This document shows, piece after piece, positions 31,958-46,901 of a stretch of DNA of 64,000 nucleotides; positions within the stretch are counted from its first letter, which is position 1; each line of letters opens with the position of its first letter. The notes under the pieces are model-generated. The model ran no database searches and was not told the origin of the DNA. It saw only the letters and a program-made list of their open reading frames with translations. This DNA is from an uncultured Eubacteriales bacterium (GTDB lineage Bacteria > Acidobacteriota > Aminicenantia > Aminicenantales > Aminicenantaceae): positions 58,673 to 122,672 of the forward strand of contig CAYNVQ010000011.1 in the NCBI GenBank assembly GCA_964400735.1, given 5' to 3'. The translations under genes were made by a program, and so were the position numbers.

Positions 31958-34618
31958 TTGAAAATGAGAGATACAGATAGAAAAAAAGGTGCCTTTTTCC
32001 TGGTTTTAATTGTTGTTTCATTGGCAAATGTCTTGATTTCCTGCCGCCAGTCTCAAACGCAGTTTCCCGCTTTATTCCGCTTCATCGATCATCTCGAAGA
32101 GGCCCACATTGTTGTGTCCCCATTGAAAAGTCTGAAAGATAATTTTGTGACGGTCCAAGAAGACCTGTCAGGAAAATGGATGCCGGTTCCTGAATTGTCG
32201 AACGAGGAACTGAAGGCCTGGGCTGCGCCCACAAAACATCCGGTTTTGTCTTTCGATGAAACAATACAACCAGAAGGAGCGAATCTTTTCCAAGACCAGA
32301 AAGAAGTGGTTTTTTCCGAAGGCGGAGATGAGGAAAGGCTTACCTGGAAATGGGCGAAGGTAAATAAAACCAGAACTTCACAAATGCTCCCAAGTTATAA
32401 TAAGAAATTGAAGTGTTCTATCCTCAATCGTAAAAAGACCATATCCTTTTATCAGATTCTTCCCAGCAGTGAGATTGAAGTAAGAGTTGTGGCGAAGAAA
32501 GGAGCTAACCTCCCAGAAAGCCCGTCTGTAGCACTTTATTTGAATGGCCAATTCATTGAATCTCGGACCGTCAAATCTCATAAATACACGACGCTGTATT
32601 TCCGTGCTCAAGTGGAGCAAAAACTATATAAAATCGAATTCAGGTATAGAGGGCAGAAAAATATTGGACAAAAAACAAATAATATCGATATACACATAAA
32701 GAACGTCAGAATATCAGCCCCCCATGATATGATTCTCCTGAGCATCCCTTCTGGAGAGGTGCCTTCAGCCCAGAAAAGCTCTTACCGGTTGAGCTATCTT
32801 TCCCAACAGATCCAAAGGGATCGAAACAACAACTTCACCTTGGATTTCCTTCTCTCTTTATACCGGACGGCTTCACAGGATCAAATTCATGATCTAGGAA
32901 TCGCAAAAAATCCGTATTCCATCAAGAAAAAGCTGATCTTTAAAGAATATGCCTTAAATTCTCTTTTCGCTCCCCCTGAAAGTGTCATCGTTTTCCCTCT
33001 GGATCTTCCTTCCGATAGTGTTTTGGAATTCGGCTGCGGAATCCTGGAAAAAACTTGGAATAGACCAAACCACAGCGTAAAATTCCAAATCTTTCTAGAG
33101 GAGGACGGTAATCAACATGAGCTATACTCCAAGATTTTGGATCCTTTCCTCCGAGCTGAAGATAGAGATGTAATATCCCGAAAGCTTGATTTATCTCCAT
33201 TTGGAGGAAAAAAGGTTAAAATATCCTTTCTTACCCAAGCGCAAAATCCCGATACAGGGCAGAAGGGGCTATCTTTTTGGTACAATCCTCTGCTTTTCCA
33301 GAAAAAAGACAGCAAGAAACAAGATGAAATAAATGTAATACTCATTTCGCTGGATACGCTGAGAGCTGACCATCTGGGGTGTTATGGATACAAAAGAAAC
33401 ACAAGCCCGCATATCGATACTCTAGCTCAAGATAGTGCTGTTTTTCACAATGCTTACTCCCAATCTCCTTGGACCTTGCCATCCCACACTTCAATGTTGA
33501 CCGCGCTCAACCCTTACCACCACCAGGTATATCTTGCCGAAGAAAAGATGCACCCCTCCATCATAACCGTGTCTGATATCTTGAGAATCAACCATTATTA
33601 CTGCGGAGGCATAACCGCTGGCGGCTATGTCAGCGAAAAATATGGCTTTGCCAAAGGTTTCGACAGTTACAAGGGGGAAAGATACATTCCCTCCTCTGCA
33701 GATGGTGCCCGACAGATCTCATTGCATTCCCAAGACTGGCTGGAGAATAATAAAGATAAAAAATTCTTTTTGTTTCTGCATACTTATCAAATCCATGATC
33801 CTTATTTTGCCCATAAAAACATTACCGAATCCTATGTGCAGGGACCTTTAATATGGGAAAAAATGCCTTTAGCTGAATTCCTGCGAAACCAGCCGGAAAA
33901 AAGAAGATATCCTTTTTCAGAAGAAGAAAAGGCAAATCTTGTGGGGCTTTATGATGGGGAAATAAGATACACGGACGAAGTCCTCATTGGTCCCATGATT
34001 CAAAAATTGAAAGAGCTGAATCTCTATGACAGGACCATGATCATTCTCACCAGTGATCACGGAGAGGAATTCTATGACCATAGCAGCTGGCTTCATTCCC
34101 ATACCCTCTATGATGAATTGATCAATGTGCCTTTGATCGTCAAATTTCCTGAATCAAAGTACAAGGGAAAAAGAATATATCCGATTGTGCGTTCCATAGA
34201 CATCATGCCTACACTCCTGGAAGAGGCTGATATTGACTACTCTCCATTCGAGTTAGATGGAAAGAGCCTCATGTCAATTGTCAAAGGCAAAGAAAAAAAG
34301 AATAGAGTTTTCATAAGTGATTTTACCCATAAAGGATCGGAAAAACTGCGGCCGGCAGTGGTCGCAACCAATAGGGATTTGTATAAGATTATTGTAAACA
34401 GAAGGAGCTCTCCTCCTAAAATCCTCCTGTTCAACCTGGAAGACGATCCCTTAGAGAAGACAAGTCTGGAGGGAACAAACAGCAAGCTTGTCCGGGAGCT
34501 GTTCAGCTCGATTCTGGAACATTATCAGAACTTCGAGCCGATTAAGGGGAAAAGCCAAAAGGTTATTATTGATAAGGAATTGAGGGAGAGGCTGAAAGCT
34601 CTCGGCTACATCCGTTAA
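31958..34618 (+). CDS. Sulfatase-like hydrolase/transferase with large N-terminal region, probable lipoprotein
   Basis: NVILISLDTLRADHL, SPWTLPSHTSMLT, HDPY, YDGEI, TSDHGEEF, LKALGY; LISC after hydrophobic N terminus. Confidence 0.9.
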   Translation: MKMRDTDRKKGAFFLVLIVVSLANVLISCRQSQTQFPALFRFIDHLEEAHIVVSPLKSLKDNFVTVQEDLSGKWMPVPELSNEELKAWAAPTKHPVLSFDETIQPEGANLFQDQKEVVFSEGGDEERLTWKWAKVNKTRTSQMLPSYNKKLKCSILNRKKTISFYQILPSSEIEVRVVAKKGANLPESPSVALYLNGQFIESRTVKSHKYTTLYFRAQVEQKLYKIEFRYRGQKNIGQKTNNIDIHIKNVRISAPHDMILLSIPSGEVPSAQKSSYRLSYLSQQIQRDRNNNFTLDFLLSLYRTASQDQIHDLGIAKNPYSIKKKLIFKEYALNSLFAPPESVIVFPLDLPSDSVLEFGCGILEKTWNRPNHSVKFQIFLEEDGNQHELYSKILDPFLRAEDRDVISRKLDLSPFGGKKVKISFLTQAQNPDTGQKGLSFWYNPLLFQKKDSKKQDEINVILISLDTLRADHLGCYGYKRNTSPHIDTLAQDSAVFHNAYSQSPWTLPSHTSMLTALNPYHHQVYLAEEKMHPSIITVSDILRINHYYCGGITAGGYVSEKYGFAKGFDSYKGERYIPSSADGARQISLHSQDWLENNKDKKFFLFLHTYQIHDPYFAHKNITESYVQGPLIWEKMPLAEFLRNQPEKRRYPFSEEEKANLVGLYDGEIRYTDEVLIGPMIQKLKELNLYDRTMIILTSDHGEEFYDHSSWLHSHTLYDELINVPLIVKFPESKYKGKRIYPIVRSIDIMPTLLEEADIDYSPFELDGKSLMSIVKGKEKKNRVFISDFTHKGSEKLRPAVVATNRDLYKIIVNRRSSPPKILLFNLEDDPLEKTSLEGTNSKLVRELFSSILEHYQNFEPIKGKSQKVIIDKELRERLKALGYIR

Positions 34619-34652
34619 ACACAGATATGCAGATCCCTAGATAAAAGCATGC

Positions 34653-37571
34653 ATGAAGCTAAAAGTTAAGGGAAAAGGTGTCATTTGGGTCTCACTGGCC
34701 TATTTTTTTATCACTTTAATCTTTACCTATCCCCTTATTTTCAATATCAGCTCCCACATACCCGCTTACGGGAAAGGGGGAGACGCCCACAGCTTCCTCT
34801 GGAACAGTCGGAATTTCAAAGAAGCTCTGGAAGAGCCGACGCATAATCTTCTCTCAACTTCCTCAATCCTTTACCCCTTTGAGCCAAATTTGACTTTCCA
34901 TACCTATGACATACAAAGAAATTTTTTTGTCTTTTTGTTTTCGAAGTTTATCCCGTTTATTGCCTCTTTCAATTTAGTGACAATTCTGATGTTCACCTTC
35001 TCTGGAGTAGGAGCCTATCTGCTTACTCTTCGTTTCGGATGCAGCCGTTTTGCCGCTTTTTTAAGCGGCTTCATTTTTAGCTTCTGTCCCTTTAAAATGG
35101 CCCGTCTCCTTGCCCACTATAATTTTGCGGATACCGCCTTTATCCCATTCTTTATCATTTTTTTATACACAGCTTGGAATGAACGCAGATTGTTGCCAGC
35201 TTTTGCCGCCGGTGTCTCTCTCGCTTTCATCGGCTACGGCAGTTATTATTATCTGGTCTTCGCTTTCCTTTTTATGGCTTTTTTTATTCTGTACTATGGC
35301 TTTCCGCCTGCTGCCCAATTCATCAGCAAGAAAAAATTATCGAGGAAAAAAAGGCGAATCTTGAACTACTCTCAGTATCTTCTTTTTGGCCTATCGGTAT
35401 TTCTTTTCTCGGTGATCCTGATCCGCGGGTCTATTCGCTTTTTTCGTTCTGATGTGAAAAATGCCAATGGAATCTATCCGCTTTTGATCGCTGCTCTTCT
35501 TTTAAGCGTGTTTTTTCGCTTCCGGATTAACCTCAGCCATTTCATTTCCTCAGTTAAAAAAAGGCTTCATTCTCTCTATCGGGATAAGACTCTATTCACA
35601 GTTATCATTATCATCCTGGTTTTCCTTATTCTCTTTATGCCTATTTTGATTAATCTATTTAAATATCATGAAGCCTATTTTGTTAAAGAGGGGGCTTACG
35701 GCAACTCTCCTGAAATCACAAAATTGGTAACACCCGGTCCTGATTCCCTGCTTTATAAACGCGTCTTCAAGCTCGAAGAATACGGAATAGAAAAAATTAT
35801 ATTTCTTGGTTTTGTTGTTCTCCTTGGAGGAATTTATTCAATATTCTTGGCTAGAGGAAAGCCGGAGATAAAATTCTGGCAGGTTATTGCACTGATATTT
35901 ACAGTTCACTCTTTAGGGCCCTATCTTTTGGTTGCAGGTAAAAAAATCATTTGGCTGCCCTTTCAAATCACGCATTCTCTTCCTTTTTTTTCGGCCGCAC
36001 TGAATCCCGCCAGGTATATCATTATCTCTATGCTTGCAATGGGAATCCTTACTGCTTATGCAGCCGATGACATCCTTTCGAGGCTTAAACAGAAAAAGCA
36101 TAAGAAATGGCTGTATCTGGGATTTTGTGCGCTCTCATTAGTGATGATCGGAGGAGAATATGCCACCCTCCCTCTGCATATGTTCAGTCTCCGCCCTCAT
36201 GAATATTACCAGGAAATGGCCCGTGACGATGAAAACTATTCTCTTTTGGAACTTCCCTTTTCCATTTCCTCCAAAGGAAAAACTTTTGGAAAAAAAGAAA
36301 GGCTTGGATTGTATCAATATTATCAGACCATCCATGGCAAAGCTCTGCCTACAGGATGGCTCGCCAATCTTCCCTTTAAAATATTTGATTATTACAGAAA
36401 TGTGAGTTTTATTCCCAATATAGCTTATCTTCAGGAGTTGACCACAACGATTTCCCCAAAGACACTGAACTCTCTGATACTTCCGGATCCACAGTTCTGT
36501 TTATACCTCAACCTCTACAACATAAAACAGATCAACATCCACCGGGGGGCCATCAAAGCCTATGGGATTAGATGTTTAAAGAGCTATTTTAAAAAACAAT
36601 TTAAAGGAGTATTAAGGTACAGCATCAGAGGTAAAGACAATCTGATTATTCTCAAGATTCATTCTGATTTGGCCAAACCTTTTCTGGGGGAAAATCTTAT
36701 TGCTAGGGAAAAAGCTTTGGCCTTGACCGAAGGATGGTCCAGATGGATCTGGTATCAAGGAAAATTCGGGAGATGGGTGATAGCCAAAGATGCCAGTCTT
36801 CTGTTCTCAACTCCTGAAAAGAGGAGCTTCCGGCTGGAAATCGATTGTCACACCCCAGAATTCGCTCCAAATAAAAAACAGGTGCTGGAGATCCGGCTCA
36901 ATTCTTCTCTAGTAGATAAATTTTCGTACTCTGTAGATGCGGCCAGAAGTGTCACATTGCCGCAAGAGCTGGTGAGGCCTGGCTCAAACGTCATCACCTT
37001 CCATTTTCGGGATATGTTTAGGGTGCCTATTGCCCCCACTCCTCCCTATCGGATAGGCCGGACCGACACATATTCTCCAGTGGATATCGAAGCCGCCAGC
37101 AGCTCCAAAGCAATCAACTTCCAGGGAATGGGGGTATTGTTTCCCTTGAGAGTAGGTCAGCAGCGGATATATAATAAATTCAAGGCAGGTTATAATATTT
37201 TTGTGGTGAATGAAAAAACCGGAAAAATTCTTGCCCATAGATCCTTTGATACTCATACCCATGGAGAAGATTCCCGAGGCATGTCGACCTTCATCGGAAA
37301 AATCAAGGCTGGCAGAATCGTGATAGCCATAACCTGGGGAAACGCCTTTGCCTTACTTTCGGATGAGGCCGTCGCTGCCCTGAAGACGATAGGAGCACAA
37401 AAAGACATAAGGCAGTGGCCTGGATATTGTCACACAATTATCGGAGTAAAAGGAGCGAATCCTGGAGAGGCTATGGAAAAATTGAACCTTAATAAAGCAA
37501 CGCTTCTGGTCGGTCAATATTCCAACGCAGATAAAGTTGCGGCCTGGTTTAATTCTATAAAGATGTTTTGA
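34653..37571 (+). CDS. Multi-TM GT-C/YfhO-like membrane protein with C-terminal ILEI/PANDER-like domain
   Basis: GDA..FLWN, YPF.PNL.FH, LGPYL, PARY, YYQT.HGK motifs; C-terminal GYNIFVVN..SFDT..GRIV..ALKTIGA..IIGVKG..PG. Confidence 0.75.
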   Translation: MKLKVKGKGVIWVSLAYFFITLIFTYPLIFNISSHIPAYGKGGDAHSFLWNSRNFKEALEEPTHNLLSTSSILYPFEPNLTFHTYDIQRNFFVFLFSKFIPFIASFNLVTILMFTFSGVGAYLLTLRFGCSRFAAFLSGFIFSFCPFKMARLLAHYNFADTAFIPFFIIFLYTAWNERRLLPAFAAGVSLAFIGYGSYYYLVFAFLFMAFFILYYGFPPAAQFISKKKLSRKKRRILNYSQYLLFGLSVFLFSVILIRGSIRFFRSDVKNANGIYPLLIAALLLSVFFRFRINLSHFISSVKKRLHSLYRDKTLFTVIIIILVFLILFMPILINLFKYHEAYFVKEGAYGNSPEITKLVTPGPDSLLYKRVFKLEEYGIEKIIFLGFVVLLGGIYSIFLARGKPEIKFWQVIALIFTVHSLGPYLLVAGKKIIWLPFQITHSLPFFSAALNPARYIIISMLAMGILTAYAADDILSRLKQKKHKKWLYLGFCALSLVMIGGEYATLPLHMFSLRPHEYYQEMARDDENYSLLELPFSISSKGKTFGKKERLGLYQYYQTIHGKALPTGWLANLPFKIFDYYRNVSFIPNIAYLQELTTTISPKTLNSLILPDPQFCLYLNLYNIKQINIHRGAIKAYGIRCLKSYFKKQFKGVLRYSIRGKDNLIILKIHSDLAKPFLGENLIAREKALALTEGWSRWIWYQGKFGRWVIAKDASLLFSTPEKRSFRLEIDCHTPEFAPNKKQVLEIRLNSSLVDKFSYSVDAARSVTLPQELVRPGSNVITFHFRDMFRVPIAPTPPYRIGRTDTYSPVDIEAASSSKAINFQGMGVLFPLRVGQQRIYNKFKAGYNIFVVNEKTGKILAHRSFDTHTHGEDSRGMSTFIGKIKAGRIVIAITWGNAFALLSDEAVAALKTIGAQKDIRQWPGYCHTIIGVKGANPGEAMEKLNLNKATLLVGQYSNADKVAAWFNSIKMF

Positions 37572-37979
37572 TTGACTCTTTTCCCTAGCTACTGACCAGA
37601 CTGGTTTAAATGTGGGATTTTTTCTCTGGGATATCGGGGAGTGGACCTTACGAAGAAGTGGAGGATTTGGATTAGCCTCTAAGGAAAGGAAACACAAGAT
37701 AGGGCGCTTTACATGATATCTTTTTCTTGAAGAATCTGAATTTCGTTTTCTGCCTGAGTCCAGCCGTTGAGGTTTTTTTCGCCTATTATGTTAAACCTTA
37801 TCCATACGCCTTGAAAAATATCGAATAGGGCCAAGGGGCCTCTCGCTTTTTCCTGACTTGACATATTTTTGAGTCTTGATTTAAAATTGCCTGCGGTTGC
37901 TGGATGAGAAAATCGAGACAAAAGTCACAATCGAACATCCCTGCTAAAAATAGAATTTGTATCCTTAGAAGGCATAACC

Positions 37980-38471
37980 ATGGCCATTGAAAACTTTACT
38001 CTTATCGTGAATGGAAAAAAGCGAAAAGTAAAGGCAAATCCTGATGATCCTCTTCTTTGGATTCTAAGGGATAACCTTAATCTTACTGGCACAAAATTTG
38101 GCTGCGGTGCTGGGGAATGTGGTGCCTGTACAGTTATCATAGATGGGGTGGCCCGCCGATCCTGTCAGGTATTGATGAAGTACGCATCATCTGGCCAGCA
38201 AATCCTTACTATTGAGGGCCTTGGAACAAAGAATAATCTTTCACCTCTTCAGCAAGCCTTTATCGAACATACGGCCTTCTGTTGCGGTTTTTGTACCCCG
38301 GGAATGATTATGACAGCTACAGCCTTATTGAGGATGAATCCCAATCCTTCGCAGGAAGAGATAAAAGATGCGATGAATAATAACCTATGCCGCTGCGGCT
38401 CTTATCTCAATATCCTTGAGGCCATAGAATCAGTCGCGAAAAAAACAGCCATGAAAGACCAGCAAAGATGA
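37980..38471 (+). CDS. (2Fe-2S)-binding small subunit (IorA/CoxS family)
   Basis: GTKFGCGAGECGACTV, CGFCTPG, NLCRCG. Confidence 0.96.
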   Translation: MAIENFTLIVNGKKRKVKANPDDPLLWILRDNLNLTGTKFGCGAGECGACTVIIDGVARRSCQVLMKYASSGQQILTIEGLGTKNNLSPLQQAFIEHTAFCCGFCTPGMIMTATALLRMNPNPSQEEIKDAMNNNLCRCGSYLNILEAIESVAKKTAMKDQQR

Positions 38472-40603
38472 GTATGTCACGCCGCCAGTTTCTTGAGACG
38501 CTGGGGCATTCCTATCTCCTCTACGCCTTCCGTTTTACGCCGGTTGCTGGAATCCAAGCTGAACGACAAAATTCTCTGAGGGATGATACCGAAGATTTTG
38601 AATGCATGAGCATTTCTCCGGACATTGACTTCATAGATTGGATCGTTTTTGATGAGAACGACAATGTGACCATATTTACTGGACGGACAGAGCTCGGGCA
38701 GGGATTGAAGACAGTCCTTACGGCTCTTGTGACTCAAGGATTAGAGATCCCCAACGAAAAATTGACTATCATAATGGGAGATACGGATCTCTGTCCGGAC
38801 GATGGGCCCACGACCGGGAGCTGTGCAACAAGAGAGGTTGGCTGGGGGTTCTGGCTGGCGTGCAAAGAAATCCGCAATGACTTGGTTCTGCGTGCAGCGA
38901 GATTGCGTGGGCTGCAAGCAGAAGATCTTGAATTCCGTCAGGGAGGAATTCGCCATAAAAAAGATCCTGGCCTGATAATCAGACCCTCTGAGCTTTGTCA
39001 CGGGGATGTCGTTTTAATGGCAGTGGATCCTCATGATAGCTTGTCAAAAGGAGAGGGATATACCGATAGAGGGCTTTATAACGTCAATGCCAAGCAAATT
39101 GTCACAGGGAGGCTTAAATATGTCGGAGACATGAAGCTTCCAGGGATGTTTTATGCAGATTGGCTCACGCCTGCTTATCATCCGCTTCAGACCAGTCTTC
39201 TATCGGCCGATCTTGAGGAAGCAAGGTCAATCCCGGGAATAGAAATGGTTGATGTGAGAAAAGGACGGGTTGTCGCCATTGGAAGACGGTACCAGGATGT
39301 CATGAGAGCTCTCAATGTTGCTAAAGCCAAATGGTCTATGCCCAAACGGCCAAAGAAGCTGCGAGTTGAAGAAGAAATAAGAGAGAGAGCAAGGCTAGTG
39401 GAAATCAAAGAAGAAAGTGGAGATGTCGATATCGGTTTGAGAAACAGCTTTAGGACTGTTTCCGAAACTTACACCACTCAATACACGACTTGGGCTCAGA
39501 TTGAGACGGATAGCGCATTAGCCAAGCCAGAAAACAGTGGGAACGAAGTAACAGTTTGGGCGAGCTGCCAGTATCCCCATAAAGTCAAGCAACTAATCGC
39601 TCGCTATCTTCAAATTTCAAATTCTTCTGTCCATGTAATCGGAATGCCCGTAGGCGGCGGATTTGGGGGAAAGATTGTTAGCCCGGTAAGCCAGGAGGCT
39701 GCAGATCTGTCTAGAATGGTCGGAGCACCTATACAATTGATATATAGCCGGAAGAATCAGGTTCAGCTGAGAGGAAAATACAAGATGGCATGCGTCGTCG
39801 ACTTGATAACAGGTGTCGGAACAGATGGCAGAATTCTCGCCCGCAAGGTTGACATTTATCAGGATGTGGGCAATGGAACAACGGGAACATACGCTATCCC
39901 CAATGTTTTAACGAGGCTCTATCAATCAAGATGGCCATTTGCTAGGGCTATTAGCCGCGGAACAAGCTTTGTTCAAACCTGCTTTGCAACAGAGAGTCAT
40001 ATAGATATGGTGGCCGCATCTATGGGCTTTGATCCCTTTGTATTCCGACGGATAAATGTTCGGTTTCCTGCATTTATTAATCTGATTGACGCCTGTGCTG
40101 AAATGATCGGTTATGATAATTACCAACCTTCCCCTGATGAAGGAATTGGCATGGCTATCTGCCATCATGGAGGCAAACAATTGGGTGCTGTGTCTGCTGA
40201 AGTGGCGGTTGATCGTTCAACAGGCAACATAAAAGTCAAGAAGATCTGTGGAGCCTTTGACATCGGAACCATCATCAATAGAAACACAGTTACAGTCGGA
40301 ATCCGGGGAGCCATTATTTGGGGACTTGGATATGCCTTATCCGAGAGGGTCAACTTGGATGGACACAGTTGTTATACAGAGTATTTTAATGACTATCGTA
40401 TTCCCCGTTTTTCCGATATCCCACCGATTGAAATAGCCTTTCTGGATAACTATAATCCTGGGGCACCGAGAGGCTGTGGAGAAATGCCGATGATTCCCAC
40501 GATTGGCGCCATTGCTAACGCTGTTTATAGGGCTGTCGGTATCAGATTCTACTCAACTCCCATCACGCCCGACCGGGTTCAAAAGGCTTTGCAGAGGATA
40601 TAA
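38468..40603 (+). CDS. Xanthine dehydrogenase-family molybdopterin subunit (IorB-like), Tat-like signal
   Basis: MSRRQFL; ELGQG, GGGFGGK, FATESHID, GCGE..IP..AIANAV; ATGA overlap with Fe-S gene. Confidence 0.93.
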   Translation: MSMSRRQFLETLGHSYLLYAFRFTPVAGIQAERQNSLRDDTEDFECMSISPDIDFIDWIVFDENDNVTIFTGRTELGQGLKTVLTALVTQGLEIPNEKLTIIMGDTDLCPDDGPTTGSCATREVGWGFWLACKEIRNDLVLRAARLRGLQAEDLEFRQGGIRHKKDPGLIIRPSELCHGDVVLMAVDPHDSLSKGEGYTDRGLYNVNAKQIVTGRLKYVGDMKLPGMFYADWLTPAYHPLQTSLLSADLEEARSIPGIEMVDVRKGRVVAIGRRYQDVMRALNVAKAKWSMPKRPKKLRVEEEIRERARLVEIKEESGDVDIGLRNSFRTVSETYTTQYTTWAQIETDSALAKPENSGNEVTVWASCQYPHKVKQLIARYLQISNSSVHVIGMPVGGGFGGKIVSPVSQEAADLSRMVGAPIQLIYSRKNQVQLRGKYKMACVVDLITGVGTDGRILARKVDIYQDVGNGTTGTYAIPNVLTRLYQSRWPFARAISRGTSFVQTCFATESHIDMVAASMGFDPFVFRRINVRFPAFINLIDACAEMIGYDNYQPSPDEGIGMAICHHGGKQLGAVSAEVAVDRSTGNIKVKKICGAFDIGTIINRNTVTVGIRGAIIWGLGYALSERVNLDGHSCYTEYFNDYRIPRFSDIPPIEIAFLDNYNPGAPRGCGEMPMIPTIGAIANAVYRAVGIRFYSTPITPDRVQKALQRI

Positions 40604-40640
40604 AAGTTGAAATATCGAGCTCAAGGTCACGGAGTTCCAG

Positions 40641-41207
40641 ATTAGACAATACAAGAGGGTATTTTTCTATCTCATATTCCTCATTTCATGCAGTTTTTTA
40701 TCTTCCAATCTGCAACAGGATATCAAGGATTCTCCCGGGCTTTTGAGCATTTTCCACAGCGATTTTCCTGGGCCGAGCAATTGCCAAAGGTGCCACACAC
40801 CGGAATTTGCAGTGGATGACGAAAAATGCCTTGCTTGTCATTCAGAGATAGGCTCGCGCATTGCTTCAGGTCGGGGTTTCCACAGAGATAAGAATCATGT
40901 CTGTTCACAGTGCCATCCCGAGCACAGGGGAAGAGAGCGGAATCTAATGAATATAGATATCCAGAATTTTGACCATAGCCAGACAGGGTACATTCTTAAA
41001 GGAGCTCATCAAAGCATTGAAGATTGCAGTGCCTGTCATAGAGAGGATAACTCCTATCCTAGGGAAAGGACTCGGTCTTTTCTTCTGATGGATTCCCGCT
41101 GCATCTCCTGCCATGGATCTCCTCATCCTGGTAACCAGGATAATTGCCAAGCCTGCCACAATCAGAAAAGCTGGTGGGTCGATATCTGGGTTTCGTCCGA
41201 TTTCTGA
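40641..41207 (+). CDS. Hexaheme cytochrome c; start uncertain (ATT 40641 or TTG 40743)
   Basis: Six CxxCH (CQRCH, CLACH, CSQCH, CSACH, CISCH, CQACH); frame open upstream to 40611 and encodes a signal-peptide-like stretch. Confidence 0.88.
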   Translation: MRQYKRVFFYLIFLISCSFLSSNLQQDIKDSPGLLSIFHSDFPGPSNCQRCHTPEFAVDDEKCLACHSEIGSRIASGRGFHRDKNHVCSQCHPEHRGRERNLMNIDIQNFDHSQTGYILKGAHQSIEDCSACHREDNSYPRERTRSFLLMDSRCISCHGSPHPGNQDNCQACHNQKSWWVDIWVSSDF

Positions 41208-42496
41208 TGAGTAAATTCTGTATCGCGTTCATTATCGTCTTTTCATTTATTGCGCCCTGTTTTGCGCAGGAGAATGGGGCATCTGACAATTTATACGTGA
41301 GAGGTGTTTTTTATCTGGACTGGTCTGGAATTAATTATGAAGGAGAGCAATTTTTCAGTCAGTTAGGCGTCCGAGTTAATCTAGAAATGTTAAATCGACG
41401 CGGTTCAGGATGGACTTTGAAGTTAAATGGACGAAATCGTTTTCAGTTATCTCAGGAGAAGCGCAATCAGGTTATTTTTTATGACGCCTACCTAAGTTAT
41501 GAAAAAGCAGAAACCCCAATGTATTTTGCTGCAGGACAGATGAACCTGTATGACACAGCAGGCATTGGACAGCTATTGGGAGGTGCTTTGGGATTTAAGC
41601 CCACCTCCAATCTTTTGATTGGAGGGTATGCAGGACTGGAATCCGATGTCTATATCAATCGTTTAGAGAAGAGTCATCAAAAATTCGGAATTTTTGCCCG
41701 ATACTTGGGAGAATTAGGAAAAAGATTGTCGTTCAGCTATAACCATATCCGATATTCAGGAATGACAGAACAACAATATCTTTATTTCGCCGGCATGTAT
41801 CCCATAAAAAAGCTCCTGGTTCTGTATGGAAATCTGGAATTTCAACTTGGTTCAAACGTACAGAATAGAGATAGGCTATCCCGGCTTTTTCTAAACATGC
41901 GTTTCGATCCCTTCTCAGTGATCGATGTAATTGCCTTTTACAGCTCAGGCAAGGGGTTGGATTTTCACCGATATGTTTTGGAAAGATCTCAAGATCCAAT
42001 CCTCAATGATCAGCAGCTAGAACGATATTACTACTCCACTCAATTCGGGCTTCGGTTGAGCATAAAGCCGTCTCAGGATGTACGCTTTTATCTTTCCAGA
42101 CAAGAGAGCGAGCAGAAGGACTATCGAATCCACAATCATTCCTGGATTTTTGGCGGTGCCGTTCAAGATATTTTAAAAACCGGGGTCTCGTTTTATGGAA
42201 ACTATAAAAGCAATCGAGGCGAGATATCCGAATCGGATTCCTATTATCTTTCCATCAGCAAAGACTTTGGCTCGCTTTCTTGGAACCTCAGCTTTTCCAA
42301 CACCTACAATTGTCTTCGATTTGATCATACATTTGATGGCCCTCAGCTTATTCATCTTGATGATTACAAAACAGCCTCCACATATATTTTCCTCGTTTTC
42401 AGCCGTGCCTTTGCCGTGTCGTTGGAATATGAGTACTTCATTCAGGAGAAATTGAATCAACATTTGTTCTTTTTGAGGTTAATTTATAGAAAATGA
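41207..42496 (+). CDS. Probable outer-membrane beta-barrel (porin) protein
   Basis: ATG 41207 overlaps cytochrome TGA; signal peptide MSKFCIAFIIVFSFIAPCFA; alternating aromatic/hydrophobic strands; ends LFFLRLIYRK. Confidence 0.72.
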   Translation: MSKFCIAFIIVFSFIAPCFAQENGASDNLYVRGVFYLDWSGINYEGEQFFSQLGVRVNLEMLNRRGSGWTLKLNGRNRFQLSQEKRNQVIFYDAYLSYEKAETPMYFAAGQMNLYDTAGIGQLLGGALGFKPTSNLLIGGYAGLESDVYINRLEKSHQKFGIFARYLGELGKRLSFSYNHIRYSGMTEQQYLYFAGMYPIKKLLVLYGNLEFQLGSNVQNRDRLSRLFLNMRFDPFSVIDVIAFYSSGKGLDFHRYVLERSQDPILNDQQLERYYYSTQFGLRLSIKPSQDVRFYLSRQESEQKDYRIHNHSWIFGGAVQDILKTGVSFYGNYKSNRGEISESDSYYLSISKDFGSLSWNLSFSNTYNCLRFDHTFDGPQLIHLDDYKTASTYIFLVFSRAFAVSLEYEYFIQEKLNQHLFFLRLIYRK

Positions 42497-43947
42497 CGGG
42501 ATATCGAGTGAAAAGGCAAGGACCAAATAGAATCCAAATGATTCCGAAAAAATTGATTCTTTTCCTATCCCTTGTCTTTTTTCTTTTTTGGTGTGCGGCA
42601 CTAAAAGGAATAGCGCAAAAAGAGCAGGATAAACGTTGGTCATTCGAGACTCATGACCAGACCAATTTCCCCCTTACTGGAAGACATCGAACGGTTCCCT
42701 GCAGGGAATGTCATTGGAACAATGTTTTTGAAGGAACTCCCACAGTATGTGAAGTATGCCATTGGGATCGACGGAAAGATGATCGCTATCAACTCAGGCT
42801 TGGAACTCATTGTGCCGATTGTCACAACACGTTTTCATGGAAAAGCGTACCGCCCGATAATTGGAACCATGGGACAATCGTCGGATACATGCTTCGTGGA
42901 GAGCACCGGATTCTCGACTGCGTCGAGTGTCATGGAAAAGCCGGTTTTGACGAGAACATCGTTGAATGCTACGGCTGTCATAACGATGATTTTCAATCAT
43001 CCCGCAATCCAAACCATCAAGCTGCTGAATTTTCCGTCAATTGCTGGACTTGTCATCTTCAAGAATACAGTTGGGAAGGGGCAAAATATTCCCATGATTT
43101 CTATCTTTTAAAAGGGATGCATAAATTGGCAAAATGCTCTGACTGCCACAGCACCGACATGTACAAAGGGCGGCCATCTGCATGCATTTCTTGCCATCTT
43201 CAGGACTATAACAATGCCCTCAACCCGGACCACCTTGGATTAGGATTTCCCACTGAATGTGAATCGTGTCATGGTTCAGACGCTCAAGGGTGGGAAGGTC
43301 CAGTGTTTTCCCATTCGAAATTTCCTTTAAAAGGAAAACATAGGCTGACCCAGTGTGCCGATTGCCACAAGATAGGGGTCTATGAGGGACTCCCTTCAGA
43401 ATGTGTATTTTGCCATCTGGATGATTATTTGAATGCAAAAGATCCCAACCACAAACAACTGGGATTCCATACCGACTGCGAGATCTGTCATGGTACGGAT
43501 GCTGCCGGCTGGAAAAATTCTTCCTTCAGCCACAATTCAATTTGGTCTCTTCAGGGCGCCCATACACGTTTGGATTGCATAACGTGTCATCAAAAAGGCC
43601 GAAACCTTCCGCGGGATTGTTTCGGCTGTCATGTAAAAGAATATGACGCTTCCACAGCTCCTGACCATAAATCCGCAGGCTTTCCCTCTACATGCGAGAA
43701 CTGTCATCTTCCTTCCCATAGATTCTGGACTCAAAGCCAATTTAGGCACCAAATTCCAATAAAAGATGGTAAACATGCTCATTTGAGCTGCGTCGATTGC
43801 CATTTGTCTGCTAACTACAGAGATTTTTCTTGTCTGAATTGCCATGCCCATGAGAAAAGGCGTATGGACAAGAAACACATAGAGGTATCCGGTTATGCTT
43901 TCAGCAGCCAAGCCTGTCTTGCGTGCCATTTGCAGGGAAGAAGGTAA
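42493..43947 (+). CDS. Multiheme cytochrome c (18 CxxCH)
   Basis: 18 CxxCH counted; repeating module (F/Y)xLxGxH-CxxCH-CxxCH-PxH-CxxCH-W; N-terminal signal. Confidence 0.93.
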   Translation: MTGYRVKRQGPNRIQMIPKKLILFLSLVFFLFWCAALKGIAQKEQDKRWSFETHDQTNFPLTGRHRTVPCRECHWNNVFEGTPTVCEVCHWDRRKDDRYQLRLGTHCADCHNTFSWKSVPPDNWNHGTIVGYMLRGEHRILDCVECHGKAGFDENIVECYGCHNDDFQSSRNPNHQAAEFSVNCWTCHLQEYSWEGAKYSHDFYLLKGMHKLAKCSDCHSTDMYKGRPSACISCHLQDYNNALNPDHLGLGFPTECESCHGSDAQGWEGPVFSHSKFPLKGKHRLTQCADCHKIGVYEGLPSECVFCHLDDYLNAKDPNHKQLGFHTDCEICHGTDAAGWKNSSFSHNSIWSLQGAHTRLDCITCHQKGRNLPRDCFGCHVKEYDASTAPDHKSAGFPSTCENCHLPSHRFWTQSQFRHQIPIKDGKHAHLSCVDCHLSANYRDFSCLNCHAHEKRRMDKKHIEVSGYAFSSQACLACHLQGRR

Positions 43948-44328
43948 TCGTTTTCTTTTTGCTGTGGATTTGATGCTGGCCAAAATCAAGGTGGCTTTGG
44001 AGGGAGAGACTATCACTTCGTCCAAATAACAACAAAGTGCATTTCAGTTTGACGTTTTGATCGCCACTCCCTTTTCATGGCGATAATTTTTGACCGAACT
44101 ATAAATAGGCCGAAAAACAGGGAAAATGAAAGATATAGAGTGTTCACCGCTGCGACAGAGGGTTTGAGATGGCCCACAGTTCAGAGAGCGCCCGGAAAGC
44201 TTGCTGCAAGGCGAGTTTTGAGCTATTGTGCTTCCGATTAGGACCGAGTCGAAGACAGGAGTTATGAGATTATCAGAGACCAATCGATAGCGGAAGTCCT
44301 GAAGTGTTGGGAAATCCAGCTTGGCAGA

Positions 44329-45222
44329 ATGCGTGCGGATATTCCGATAGCCGGGAGTCCGGACCGGAGCGAATATCGGACAGTGGTTGAAGATAGGGAA
44401 CAAAACCTATTTATTCTCGAGAAAGTATTCGCAGAAACGGTGACGCACAAGAAGAAGATCGCTCGAACCCTCGCTTTTCTCGGGGAAAAGGGCCTTCATC
44501 AAGTCCGGTCCTATCTCCCTTGGGAAATGGATGAATACATAGCCTGTTGGAAAAATAGTTTTTGGCAAATCGTCCCCTATGTCGAGGGCATTCCTCTCCT
44601 GCGGCCTGGTTACGCTTTTGAAGGTTGGAGGGGACCTGTTCTGGCCGATTTTTTGATCGAACTTTGGGATAAGTCCCAAGATGTATCGCTTTTCGATAAA
44701 TCTTTTCCTTTCTCCATCGTCTCCTTTATCCAGGACTTCGAGGGTAAAATGGGACGTTATGAGCCCCTCTTGTACAAGCGAATTCAGCCGGCCTTGGAAT
44801 TTTTAGATCGGGAATTCATGAAAGTCCACGACAGTCTCCCCATTCGCTTCTGCCACGGGGATTACCATCCCCTGAATGTGATCTGGTCTGAGTCGGGGAC
44901 ACGGTCGGTTATCGATTGGGAATTCCTGGGTTATAAACCCGAGATCTACGATGTTGCGATGCTGATCGGCTGTCTGGGGATGGAAAAACCGCAGAGTCTT
45001 ACAGGGGATCTTGTCTTCGAATTCGTGGGACGCCTCAAAGAATCCAGCCTTATTGCAGAAATCAGCTGGTCCTTTTTGTTTGAATTTGTTTTGGCGCTGA
45101 GGTTTGCCTGGCTGTCGGATTGGCTCAAACGACGTGATGCTGAAATGATCGACCTCGAGGCGATCTACATCCGGCTCCTTCTCGAAAATCGCAACATCTT
45201 CACCCGTTCCTGGGGAATCTGA
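44329..45222 (+). CDS. APH / type II homoserine kinase-like phosphotransferase; true N terminus may extend upstream
   Basis: HGDYHPLNV and VIDWE motifs. Confidence 0.88.
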   Translation: MRADIPIAGSPDRSEYRTVVEDREQNLFILEKVFAETVTHKKKIARTLAFLGEKGLHQVRSYLPWEMDEYIACWKNSFWQIVPYVEGIPLLRPGYAFEGWRGPVLADFLIELWDKSQDVSLFDKSFPFSIVSFIQDFEGKMGRYEPLLYKRIQPALEFLDREFMKVHDSLPIRFCHGDYHPLNVIWSESGTRSVIDWEFLGYKPEIYDVAMLIGCLGMEKPQSLTGDLVFEFVGRLKESSLIAEISWSFLFEFVLALRFAWLSDWLKRRDAEMIDLEAIYIRLLLENRNIFTRSWGI

Positions 45223-45443: not shown

Positions 45444-46901
45444 ATGACAGGAGAGATCAAATCCATTTCAAATCCTCGCCTCAATCTGAATATCCTTAGC
45501 CCTGAGGATGTTCGAAAGATTCATGCCGCCACCTTGGATGTCATCGAATCGGTGGGAGTGAAGTTCCCCTCTCAAAAAGCGATGAACATATGGGAAGAAC
45601 ACGGCGCTTACGTCAACAAAAGCACATCTGTTGTGAAAGTTCCGGGTTACATCATCGAAGAGTCTCTCAAAAAAGCACCACCTGCCTTTATTTTATTCGC
45701 CCGGAATCCTGACCAGGACCTTCCTCTAGACGGCAATCATGTCTATGTGGGCACAGACGGCTGTGGAGTGGAAACGATCGATATAGCGAGCGGCGAACTG
45801 CGCCGTTCTTGCCTTGAAGATGTTGCAGAAATCGCCCGTGTGGCTGACTGTCTTGAGCAGATCGCTTTCAATTGGGTGCCTGTTTCTGCTCAAGATTATC
45901 CGCCTGAATCGAGAAGTCTTCACGAACTCCTGGCTATCTGGCGAAATTCTTCCAAACACGCGCAGACGGAAAGCATCTATTCTGGACGAGAAGCTCGCGC
46001 GGCTGTGGAGATGGCTGCAACAATTACTGGCGGAGAAAAAGCCCTGCGCAAGCGACCGCTTCTCTCTCTTACGGAATGCACCATTTCCCCTCTTGCCCAA
46101 GATAGGGGCAGTTTAGAGGCTGCTCTGGTGGCTGCGGAAGCGGGTATTCCGGTGGGTTTCATGACTATGGCCTCCTGTGCCTCCACCGCACCTACCACTC
46201 TTGCCGGGAATCTAGTTGTCGGAAATGCAGAGGTTCTAAGCGCTCTGGCTCTGATTCAGTTGGCCTACCCCGGCTCGCCCGTGTTTTATGCCGCTGCCCA
46301 AACGGCCATGGATCTACGTACCGGTGGCTACACCGGCGGAGGGCCAGAAGATTTCCTGTTTGGGGCTGCAACGAATGTCCTCTCTGACTTTTATGATATC
46401 CCGCTCTCTATGGGCTCCTTTGCCACCGGGGCCAAAGAGCCGAACTGGCAGGCCGGTATCGAAAACAGCCTCTCCACATTGATGGCCTCATTGACCATGT
46501 CGGATATGCTTCTCGGAGTTGGGCTGCTCAACGGCAGTTTGATCTGGTCGTTCGAACAGATGATCATGGACTGTGAAATATTCGATATCATTCACGACAT
46601 GATGAAAGGCATCGTCGTCAATGAGGAAACCTTAGCCTTGGATGTCATCCGGGAAGTCGGGCCTGGCGGTCATTACCTCAGCCAAAAACACACCTTGGAG
46701 CACATAAAGGAGCTGTGGATCGCAACGTTGATGGACCGCCGCCCCTACAGTGAATGGATCAAAAAAAGGGACAATGCGCAGGATTGGGCCCGGGAAAAGG
46801 CAAAAAAAATCCTGAGAACTCACAAACCCGAGCCTCTTGATTCCAAGGTAGAATCGGAGCTAAAAAGGATCATTCGATCGTTCGAAAAAAACTATGCATG
46901 A
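45444..46901 (+). CDS. Trimethylamine methyltransferase (MttB) superfamily protein, non-pyrrolysine
   Basis: IHAATLDVIE.VGV, P.TLAG.LV..NAE.L, QAGIE, LALDVIREVGPGGHYL; no in-frame amber. Confidence 0.92.
   Translation: MTGEIKSISNPRLNLNILSPEDVRKIHAATLDVIESVGVKFPSQKAMNIWEEHGAYVNKSTSVVKVPGYIIEESLKKAPPAFILFARNPDQDLPLDGNHVYVGTDGCGVETIDIASGELRRSCLEDVAEIARVADCLEQIAFNWVPVSAQDYPPESRSLHELLAIWRNSSKHAQTESIYSGREARAAVEMAATITGGEKALRKRPLLSLTECTISPLAQDRGSLEAALVAAEAGIPVGFMTMASCASTAPTTLAGNLVVGNAEVLSALALIQLAYPGSPVFYAAAQTAMDLRTGGYTGGGPEDFLFGAATNVLSDFYDIPLSMGSFATGAKEPNWQAGIENSLSTLMASLTMSDMLLGVGLLNGSLIWSFEQMIMDCEIFDIIHDMMKGIVVNEETLALDVIREVGPGGHYLSQKHTLEHIKELWIATLMDRRPYSEWIKKRDNAQDWAREKAKKILRTHKPEPLDSKVESELKRIIRSFEKNYA

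Follow-up and report, generated by a model that had tools for sequence, protein, structure and literature searches.

A Molybdenum Hydroxylase of the IorAB Type Encoded Beside a Predicted Barrel–Multiheme Cytochrome Module in Aminicenantia

Gene Organization of the Locus

The window analysed here is a stretch of 64,000 nucleotides (nt) from the genome of an uncultured sediment bacterium of the class Aminicenantia (assembly GCA_964400735.1, contig CAYNVQ010000011.1), and positions 37980-43947 of this window hold five genes in one orientation. The first two encode a putative molybdenum hydroxylase, IorAB: an iorA-like small subunit (37980..38471, plus strand) of 163 amino acids (aa) with two [2Fe-2S] domains and no signal peptide, and an iorB-like molybdopterin subunit (38468..40603, plus strand) of 711 aa with a twin-arginine (Tat) signal and a permuted domain order. 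These are followed by a hexaheme cytochrome c, referred to as cyt6 (40641..41207, plus strand; 188 aa when read from an ATT, including a Sec signal peptide and six CxxCH motifs), an outer-membrane-type β-barrel modelled with 22 strands (41207..42496, plus strand; 429 aa including a signal peptide, lacking both a plug domain and CxxCH), and an 18-heme cytochrome c, referred to as cytN (42493..43947, plus strand; 484 aa, comprising a signal peptide and six triheme modules). The last three genes are called the module below. It is proposed, with the chances evenly balanced, that oxidation by IorAB is wired via the module to an electron path across the outer membrane.

The five genes had been described in an earlier note made from the sequence alone, and the analysis of open reading frames (ORFs) and domains bears out their coordinates and shared orientation in every detail. 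The overlaps that it reported, ATGA at 38468 and 42493 and TGATG at 41205, are read directly from the sequence, and a start at ATT 40641 leaves exactly the 37-nt gap after iorB that it had given. Its remark that a flavin adenine dinucleotide (FAD) subunit is missing likewise holds, with no FAD-binding-subunit family among the 39 called ORFs of the window.

The hexaheme gene most likely starts at this conserved ATT (window 40629-40643 region). There is no ATG, GTG, or TTG between the stop codon TGA at 40608-10 and a TTG at 40743, and ATT 40641 lines up with the start methionine of 20 homologues. The ATT and a GGAG located 6 nt upstream are kept in the window and in L099 and L100, the two relatives closest to it, both of which have an extra in-frame ATG four codons 5′ of the ATT where the window has ACG.

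Judged by sequence conservation, the gene set is more than a chance assembly: it recurs in other genomes and in metagenomes, and all five genes are under purifying selection, with ratios of nonsynonymous to synonymous substitution (dN/dS) of 0.10-0.22 against the 84%-identical relative L099 (dS ~0.7), namely 0.10 for iorA, 0.12 for iorB, and 0.13-0.22 for the three module genes.

The IorAB-Type Enzyme

The iorA product matches Pfam Fer2_2 (4.7e-32) and Fer2 (6.7e-10) above the gathering cut-offs, in agreement with the 2Fe-2S subunit read there earlier, and the iorB product matches MoCoBD_2 (2.5e-42, 145.7 bits) and MoCoBD_1 (1.8e-40, 139 bits), as befits the IorB-like molybdenum subunit of the same note. 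The RRxFL signal noticed at that time is found as RRQFL at IorB residues 5-9, of which R5, R6, and F8 are invariant across 12 orthologues. These matches assign the pair to the xanthine-oxidase family as a two-subunit, FAD-less molybdenum enzyme of the IorAB type. All matches of the pair to NCBIfam equivalogs lie far under the cut-offs (e.g., 247.8 vs. 994.6 bits), and the substrate cannot be named because no equivalog cut-off is reached.

The best solved relatives of IorB are the alpha subunit of 4-hydroxybenzoyl-CoA reductase (8.7e-33), PaoC, and an aldehyde dehydrogenase (ALDH) large subunit; the large subunit of 8gy3 matches IorB at 1e-30. The permuted domain order is reflected in the alignment of IorB residues 62-171 to PDB residues ~453-578. 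The GGGFGGK motif is kept in IorB and, like the glutamate of GCGEM, aligns with PaoC and 4-hydroxybenzoyl-CoA reductase; this glutamate, which we take to be the catalytic base, corresponds to GVGEL in the active-site region of PaoC. With its catalytic-site motifs kept, a dN/dS of 0.12, and genes for TatC and for system II cytochrome c maturation present in the genome, IorB looks active.

Structure of the Predicted Barrel and the Two Cytochromes

The product of 41207-42496, considered a probable β-barrel in the earlier note, is modelled as a 22-strand barrel of the outer-membrane type. The AlphaFold2 model, built from 32 sequences, has a mean predicted local distance difference test (pLDDT) score of 75.9 and a predicted template modelling (pTM) score of 0.67, and displays 22 long strands after an N-terminal helix. 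A Foldseek search of the PDB returned 364 solved chains at E ≤ 0.001, and all among the matches listed are outer-membrane barrels. The same is true of the 50 matches listed by VIA-align, in which the barrel aligns best with PirA (Z 19.8, root-mean-square deviation 4.5, 337 residues aligned). Residues 29-429 of the model match only the barrel part of TonB-dependent receptors, past the plug domain in each of the receptors listed. The protein carries a signal peptide, which is not followed by a hydrophobic helix.

Pfam and NCBIfam gave no match for the window barrel, and NCBIfam gave nothing for the barrel family. MtrB_PioB matched neither the window barrel (E ≤ 0.01) nor any of 32 family members (E ≤ 1), and a sequence search of solved structures yielded no matches with the barrel profile and one, at E 1.1, with a broadened profile. 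Porin_4 is reached by one homologue, P0110 (27.4 bits vs. a cut-off of 27), with three other homologues below the cut-off. Alignment of the close-family barrel profile to four Porin_4 proteins with hhalign gave a probability of 1.5%; with distant barrel relatives included, it rose to 75% (E 2.5e-5) for the final 147 columns. These distant relatives carry N-terminal AMIN or SPOR domains. An amphipathicity scan was weak, with seven strand-like segments found in the barrel protein; in a second scan, the barrel ranked 2nd of the 39 window ORFs in the ratio of beta to alpha moment. A 1007-aa candidate for a cytochrome–barrel fusion, P0131, was rejected, being two genes read through as one, with the signal peptide of the barrel itself in its interior.

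The plug domain of TonB-dependent receptors has ~130-160 residues and is thus similar in size to mature cyt6. The barrel lumen would be free and wide, because the plug domain enclosed by the matching receptor barrels is absent here. A cytochrome may sit inside the barrel.

The cytochromes agree with the 6-heme and 18-heme proteins of the earlier note, and signal peptide prediction, a check that it had suggested, places such peptides on cyt6, cytN, and the barrel. Cyt6 carries six CxxCH motifs and seven further histidines and matches Pfam Paired_CXXCH_1 (5.1e-6). In cytN, 18 CxxCH motifs are arranged in six repeats of ~72 residues with three hemes each, CxxCH spacings of 16/25/32 recur, and Pfam Cytochrome_C7 is matched at 1.6e-15. 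The 22 further histidines of cytN, which has four methionines, would suffice for bis-His ligation of all hemes. The protein is considered wire-like because of its 24.6 residues per heme, the histidines available for bis-His ligation, and its triheme c7-like modules. Of 35 downstream cytochrome ORFs in related loci, which encode 9-24 hemes, 34 have a heme number divisible by three; the cytN homologues of deep-branching loci reach 36 hemes, so that the number of triheme modules spans 3 to 12.

Neither cytochrome has an MtrA-type family match in Pfam or NCBIfam. A phmmer search of solved structures found no relative for cytN, and cyt6 had no meaningful match among solved structures, its best cytochrome match being of the MtrC family at E 0.07. 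The AlphaFold2 model of cytN, made without hemes, is unusable (pLDDT 48.2). A lipobox-like LISC raised the possibility of cyt6 being a lipoprotein, which was rejected since the cysteine is not conserved in homologues.

The Barrel–Cytochrome Module in Aminicenantia

A scan of one genome per species gave 59 barrel loci. The barrel is present in 40 of 251 sampled Aminicenantia genomes and confined to three of 14 families; its named homologues come from metagenome-assembled genomes of Candidatus Aminicenantes. A cytN homologue lies 3′ of the barrel in 56 of the 59 loci, the other three ending at most 235 nt past the barrel, and a cyt6 homologue lies 5′ of it in 50. The barrel and the modular cytochrome together form a module without a family name. 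A second cyt6–barrel–cytochrome set is found in the window's own genome (G000:C10:64034-69952; L093 7038-12953, minus strand), in which the barrel is 60% identical, the third gene encodes 21 hemes, and no IorAB lies alongside. This set is located 342 nt 3′ of a gene for a 683-aa multicopper oxidase; the oxidase was rejected as a module partner, as the pairing is not conserved and only L046 has a homologue nearby.

Where IorAB is lacking, the neighbours of the module are unrelated genes and include DUF5916/CBM9 proteins, peptidases, a glycoside phosphorylase, and regulators. In ten such loci (L022, L023, L028, L030, L035, L037, L038, L041, L052, and L056), a co-oriented gene for a DUF5916/CBM9 protein of ~700-730 aa lies 3′ of a short cytochrome with 9-12 hemes, and this protein could be an additional component of the module in that clade. 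The module takes deep-branching forms in L042, L045, L049, L051, L057, and L024, which combine cytochromes of 23-24 and 21-36 hemes with an extra ORF of 427-525 aa between barrel and cytochrome. These six loci also encode a membrane protein of ~300 aa with a weak Ferric_reduct match, which is absent from the window and its genome, and their layout is similar to that published for PCC3. Separately from the module, Porin_4 proteins with an N-terminal CxxCH are encoded at L178 1210-2436 and L180 1153-2376 (in the relatives G135 and G161); they are classed as putative Cyc2-like fused cytochrome-porins, which fits the published cyc2 in Aminicenantes (PMC7005843).

Linkage of IorAB to the Module

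IorAB adjoins the barrel in 11 of the 59 loci, or 11 of the 41 in which its presence can be determined, as 18 loci are too short to judge. It lies upstream in eight and directly downstream of cytN in three, the gap in genome loci with the latter arrangement being about 35-55 nt. Orthologues of IorB, with identities of 51% or more, are present in 11 of the 251 class genomes, a twelfth match being a paralogue at 35%. All 11 of these genomes are barrel-positive, vs. 40 of 251 overall, a co-occurrence that is not a formal statistic because the genomes are related.

Metagenomes scanned with an IorB alignment yielded 79 loci, in 45 of which IorB is at least 50% identical to that of the window. Among these 45, 22 are linked to module genes, five stand alone, and 18 are too short (22 linked of 27 determinable); no module gene occurs in the 34 loci with IorB below 50% identity. 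Some metagenome contigs are identical with genome loci (e.g., L108 and L032), so the two linkage counts are not independent. The module lies 3′ of IorB in 15 metagenome loci, beginning with cyt6 in 11, with the barrel in three, and with cytN in one, and lies 5′ of IorAB in seven, including L111. In L111 (19-8136), barrel and cytN are followed by two tandem IorA-IorB pairs, the IorB proteins being 59% and 61% identical to that of the window. Variants without cyt6 that retain cytN beside IorAB are L012/L085, L103, L109, and L137, and L117 retains it without the barrel; cytN is the sole module gene found in every linked locus of sufficient length.

A long branch separates the orthologue clade from the other IorB paralogues in the tree of IorB. 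Its 17 distinct rows (seven duplicates dropped) comprise seven of the upstream type, four of the downstream type, and six stand-alone; linked forms are spread over all of the clade, within which the stand-alone forms are nested. The order with IorAB upstream belongs to the family labelled f1 and the order with IorAB downstream to the family labelled f10, and in a quick tree of the barrel the two gene orders fall in different deep clades. The synteny search that the earlier note had called for thus finds IorAB and the cytochrome–barrel genes together elsewhere, in two orders according to family. On the barrel model and this synteny, neither of the two observations by which the earlier note would have been refuted is borne out. 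A functional link between IorAB and the module is supported by this synteny in two gene orders and by the restriction of the IorB clade to barrel-positive genomes, and the inference of the earlier note, that periplasmic oxidation is coupled to extracellular electron transfer or the reverse, is supported in part.

Proposed Electron Path and Alternatives

From these observations we infer an electron path, including its topology, direction, and class of substrate. IorAB would be exported in folded form to the periplasm via the Tat signal on IorB and would there oxidise a small soluble substrate such as an aldehyde, an aldose, or an N-heterocycle. The electrons would leave through the two [2Fe-2S] clusters to c-type hemes rather than to flavin or nicotinamide adenine dinucleotide, and the acceptor would be the adjoining module, that is, cyt6 and above all the 18-heme wire cytN. 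CytN, possibly together with cyt6, would fill the barrel lumen and move electrons over the outer membrane to a final extracellular acceptor, which may be an Fe(III) or Mn(IV) mineral, humic matter, or a partner cell. In these terms, barrel–cytN, with or without cyt6, may serve as a general conduit of Aminicenantia that would otherwise be supplied by the quinol-linked cytochromes of the cell, and IorAB may be an optional, lineage-specific input beside them.

Several observations weigh against this path. IorAB is absent within 2.7 kilobases (kb) on both sides in 30 of the 41 determinable barrel loci; this corrects the earlier note in that the cytochrome–barrel–cytochrome set is autonomous. A sister IorAB group (54-57% identical) stands alone. 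The gap between IorB and cyt6 ranges from 21 to 519 nt in relatives, and in L113 a 609-aa gene on the opposite strand lies between IorAB and the module. A promoter-like candidate within the 3′ end of iorB (40428..40456, plus strand; TTGAAA, 17 nt, TATAAT; 11/12) is a possible promoter of the module's own, which would fit the variable gaps and the inserted gene of L113; the promoter-like sites of the region, this one included, are not above chance (10 vs. 12.4 ± 3.8 in shuffles). Moreover, a canonical start codon for cyt6 is lacking in the window, and the homologues of cyt6 and cytN have no conserved lipoprotein signal and no mark of surface exposure. The closest described counterpart of the cytN architecture, the triheme-domain cytochrome GSU1996, is a periplasmic protein for which a role as electron store (capacitor) has been discussed (PMC10138318).

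The molybdenum cofactor provides a further point on this side. A search of the window's genome for Pfam MoeA_N, MoaC, the MoaA C-terminal domain, MoaE, and XdhC found none of them. In four f1 relatives with the same operon, the MoaA C-terminal domain and MoaE were not found, and two of the four, searched for MoeA_N and MoaC, yielded neither. The f1 genomes searched (G000, which is the window's, and G129, G237, G248, and G249) are 83-92% complete, so that absence of the cofactor genes is not proven. MoeA_N is present in three of three f10 genomes and MoaC in two of three, and the cofactor gene cluster of one f10 genome found no match in the window's genome by tblastn. Either the cofactor pathway lies in unassembled parts of the five genomes or the cofactor is obtained otherwise, i.e., scavenged. 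All five f1 genomes retain several xanthine-oxidase-family enzymes despite the cofactor genes not found.

The autonomy of the module, the stand-alone sister group, and the separate transcription units in L113 would also suit an arrangement in which IorAB and the module share no electron path, each having other partners, and owe their proximity to shared regulation or to common transfer on a genomic island; the region at 32-44 kb is lower in G+C (0.41-0.47) than most of the window. This explanation is regarded as decidedly unlikely. The adjacency outlasts a change of gene order between families, the loss of cyt6, and the tandem duplication in L111; the IorB clade is seen only in barrel-positive genomes (11 of 11); and a FAD-less IorAB needs a cytochrome acceptor, no other cytochrome gene being located beside it.

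A second alternative confines the wiring to the periplasm. Cyt6 and cytN would be periplasmic carriers or a capacitor that feeds periplasmic or inner-membrane reductases, and the barrel would be an anchor, a scaffold, or an ordinary channel. The capacitor-like cytochromes mentioned above and the lack of a surface-localisation signal on cyt6 and cytN speak for it, as does L117, in which IorAB lies with an 18-heme cytN and a barrel is lacking within 6 kb; enzymes similar to IorAB with a plain periplasmic or membrane cytochrome c as partner are known as well (PMC6365646). It is nevertheless considered unlikely, given that in 56 of 59 loci barrel and cytN form a pair whose genes overlap or abut, which would be difficult to account for if the barrel were unrelated to the hemes, and that the barrel is predicted to be wide, 22-stranded, and plug-less.

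Comparison With Known Systems

The closest precedent for the proposed path across the outer membrane is DmsEFABGH of Shewanella oneidensis, an extracellular dimethyl sulfoxide (DMSO)/iodate reductase in which a Tat-type molybdoenzyme, a multiheme cytochrome, and a barrel are encoded in one cluster and form a modular path. The earlier note had stated that it knew of no characterised combination of this kind. The Shewanella dmsEFABGH cluster does provide a precedent for a molybdenum enzyme joined to a porin–cytochrome set, although with another enzyme family and the opposite catalytic sense; a version with a xanthine-oxidase-family enzyme was not found in the literature covered. DmsEF are MtrAB homologues, whereas the barrel here has no MtrB_PioB match and the hemes number 6 plus 18 rather than 10. 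The enzyme encoded here is of the xanthine-oxidase family (MoCoBD, two [2Fe-2S] clusters), which normally oxidises, and DmsAB is said to belong to the DMSO-reductase family and to act as a terminal reductase at the cell surface, to which it is reportedly exported via Tat and type II secretion.

By analogy, IorAB might itself be located at the cell surface after Tat export and exchange electrons with the periplasm via the barrel–cytochrome conduit; it would oxidise a substrate that does not enter the cell, with electrons flowing inward, or act as a reductase supplied from inside. The f10 order cyt6-barrel-cytN-IorA-IorB mirrors dmsEFAB, two secretin genes are present in the genome, and Shewanella DmsAB, encoded with the MtrAB-like DmsEF, works outside the cell (PMC11302344; PMC9732548; PMC9048795). 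Yet IorAB bears no secretion mark beyond its Tat signal, the secretins may belong to pili, and enzymes of the IorAB type are known as periplasmic oxidising dehydrogenases (PMC6365646). A surface enzyme is accordingly judged very improbable.

MtrCAB, PioAB, and MtoAB resemble the locus in that a barrel gene adjoins the gene of a heme-dense cytochrome, and a barrel-sheathed cytochrome is the principle proposed here. They differ in that neither the barrel nor the cytochromes of the locus have a sequence-family match, that no lipoprotein surface cytochrome is encoded here, and that cytN is built from triheme repeats of variable number. The barrel of MtrB has 26 strands, vs. the 22 modelled here; MtrB is not among the VIA-align matches listed, which does not exclude a structural match. 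At the level of sequence, none of the features of MtrAB membership that were tested is found. The Pcc sets of Geobacter (OmbB-OmaB-OmcB), which consist of a porin, a periplasmic octaheme cytochrome, and an outer-surface lipoprotein cytochrome, and the Ext clusters differ in heme numbers and in that cyt6 and cytN have no conserved lipobox cysteine.

Electrons might also run in the opposite sense, with Fe(II), a cathodic mineral, or a partner cell as their source; IorAB would use them reductively, or the conduit would serve Fe(II) oxidation with IorAB as a mere alternative donor to the same periplasmic pool. The best solved match of IorB, 4-hydroxybenzoyl-CoA reductase, works reductively. This reductive member of the family is cytoplasmic and needs a low-potential ferredoxin and extra cofactors, whereas IorB carries a Tat signal, and bis-His c-type hemes would be poor donors for such reductions. 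Porin–cytochrome systems can run inward, as proposed for PioAB/MtoAB and PCC3 (PMC5566968), and a role as iron oxidisers has been proposed for Aminicenantes from their cyc2 (PMC7005843; 10.1101/2020.09.22.307553). Taken together, electron uptake is held to be extremely improbable.

PCC3 clusters of iron-oxidising Proteobacteria comprise a porin and two repeat-rich, high-heme cytochromes with few residues per heme, which are proposed to be wires (He et al., 2017, PMC5566968). Set against that description, the locus is similar in its porin-like barrel and repeat-rich high-heme cytochrome, and the ~300-aa membrane protein of six deep-branching loci resembles the PCC3 inner-membrane protein; the window and its genome lack a protein of this kind, with IorAB in its place. 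In Geobacter, GSU1996 is a single chain of tandem triheme c7-like domains with one His-Met heme per domain and is free in the periplasm (PMC10138318). CytN is similar in its Cytochrome_C7 match and six-fold triheme repeat, and differs in having histidines for all-bis-His ligation and in being encoded beside a barrel, as are its homologues in 56 of 59 barrel loci.

As regards the enzyme, the deoxyribose dehydrogenase of Pseudomonas simiae is IorAB-like, has a Tat signal on its IorB-like subunit, and is proposed to use a cytochrome c of the operon as acceptor (PMC6365646). This enzyme and the membrane-bound aldehyde dehydrogenase of PDB 8gy3 share with IorAB a two-subunit, FAD-less architecture and a cytochrome c partner; their partner is a single membrane-anchored cytochrome c leading into the respiratory chain, whereas a hexaheme cytochrome, an 18-heme wire, and a barrel are encoded here. 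The 22-strand barrels of TonB-dependent transporters are the best structural matches of the modelled barrel (Z 19.8-16 over ~340 residues); however, the plug and TonB box region are absent here, and identities of 8-12% indicate resemblance in fold only. Four systems of Acidobacteriota and Verrucomicrobiota described in a peat preprint show cytochromes of 8-13 hemes in other orders (10.64898/2026.05.27.727921). No description of the Aminicenantia module, or of a xanthine-oxidase-family enzyme beside a porin–cytochrome cluster, was found in the literature covered, which did not extend to supplementary tables.

Host Genome and Neighbouring Features

The genome of the window (G000) comprises 4.49 Mb in 17 contigs, is 82.6% complete, and encodes TatC, two secretins, and 20 ORFs with at least three CxxCH motifs. 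A large respiratory cytochrome cluster is located at G000:C8:112000-134400 (L094 and L095). It includes two CbcL-like fusions of multiheme cytochrome and cytochrome b561 with 11 and 19 hemes, a Rieske/cytochrome b pair flanked by a 17-heme NapC/NirT-like protein and a 9-heme protein, ResB/CcsA (system II) maturation genes, 8- and 10-heme proteins, and a 302-aa decaheme protein. The CbcL-like fusions and the number of ORFs with at least three CxxCH motifs point to an electron-export repertoire in this genome.

The intergenic region ahead of iorA measures 408 nt. It contains a promoter-like candidate (37858..37887, plus strand; TTGACA, 18 nt, TAAAAT; 11/12) ~90 nt 5′ of iorA, preceded by a terminator-like hairpin (37828-37841); terminator candidates of the region are not above those in shuffles. 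An Rfam scan of 37400-44400 (E ≤ 1) found no family, cofactor riboswitches included, apart from one chance match to a long non-coding RNA. Most of the stretch is found in two DNA runs of one sediment study, and no RNA run is listed.

Synteny between the operon and the sulfatase and ILEI-domain genes 5′ of iorA extends to L099, where the genes on the 3′ side differ. The G+C content is 0.41-0.47 in window 32000-44000 vs. 0.49-0.57 over most of the window. Past cytN, a gene for an APH-family kinase (44329-45222) lies just 5′ of that for a 485-aa homologue of MttB-family methyltransferases (45444-46901; Pfam MTTB, 5.6e-90), which is considered a non-pyrrolysine member because it has no in-frame stop.

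Perspective

As a broader and more tentative idea, which we hold to be possible while doubting it, the Aminicenantia conduit might be of an undescribed kind and act as a dehydrogenase socket: a plug-less 22-strand barrel would be threaded by a cytochrome of 3-12 triheme modules, into which the FAD-less molybdenum hydroxylases of two families would plug, discharging electrons from an organic substrate onto extracellular acceptors and bypassing the quinone pool and the inner membrane. Family f1, which keeps the enzyme under purifying selection while seemingly unable to make its cofactor, would scavenge the latter from the community. If the absence of the cofactor pathway is confirmed, it would suggest that cofactors are shared within sediment communities.

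Aminicenantia abound in anoxic sediments. Their scoring as iron reducers or oxidisers has come solely from generic marker matches (PMC12740246; PMC7005843), and the class gains here a concrete, conserved, and testable machine, consisting of a module without a family name and a specific dehydrogenase attached to it. The variable-length triheme wire and the predicted plug-less 22-strand barrel offer simple parts for studying heme wires that cross membranes. If the proposed path from IorAB through the module is true, it would be a short circuit from periplasmic oxidation to the cell exterior, allowing electron disposal without investment in a respiratory chain, and would bear on how fermentative sediment bacteria are coupled to minerals, humic substances, and partner cells.

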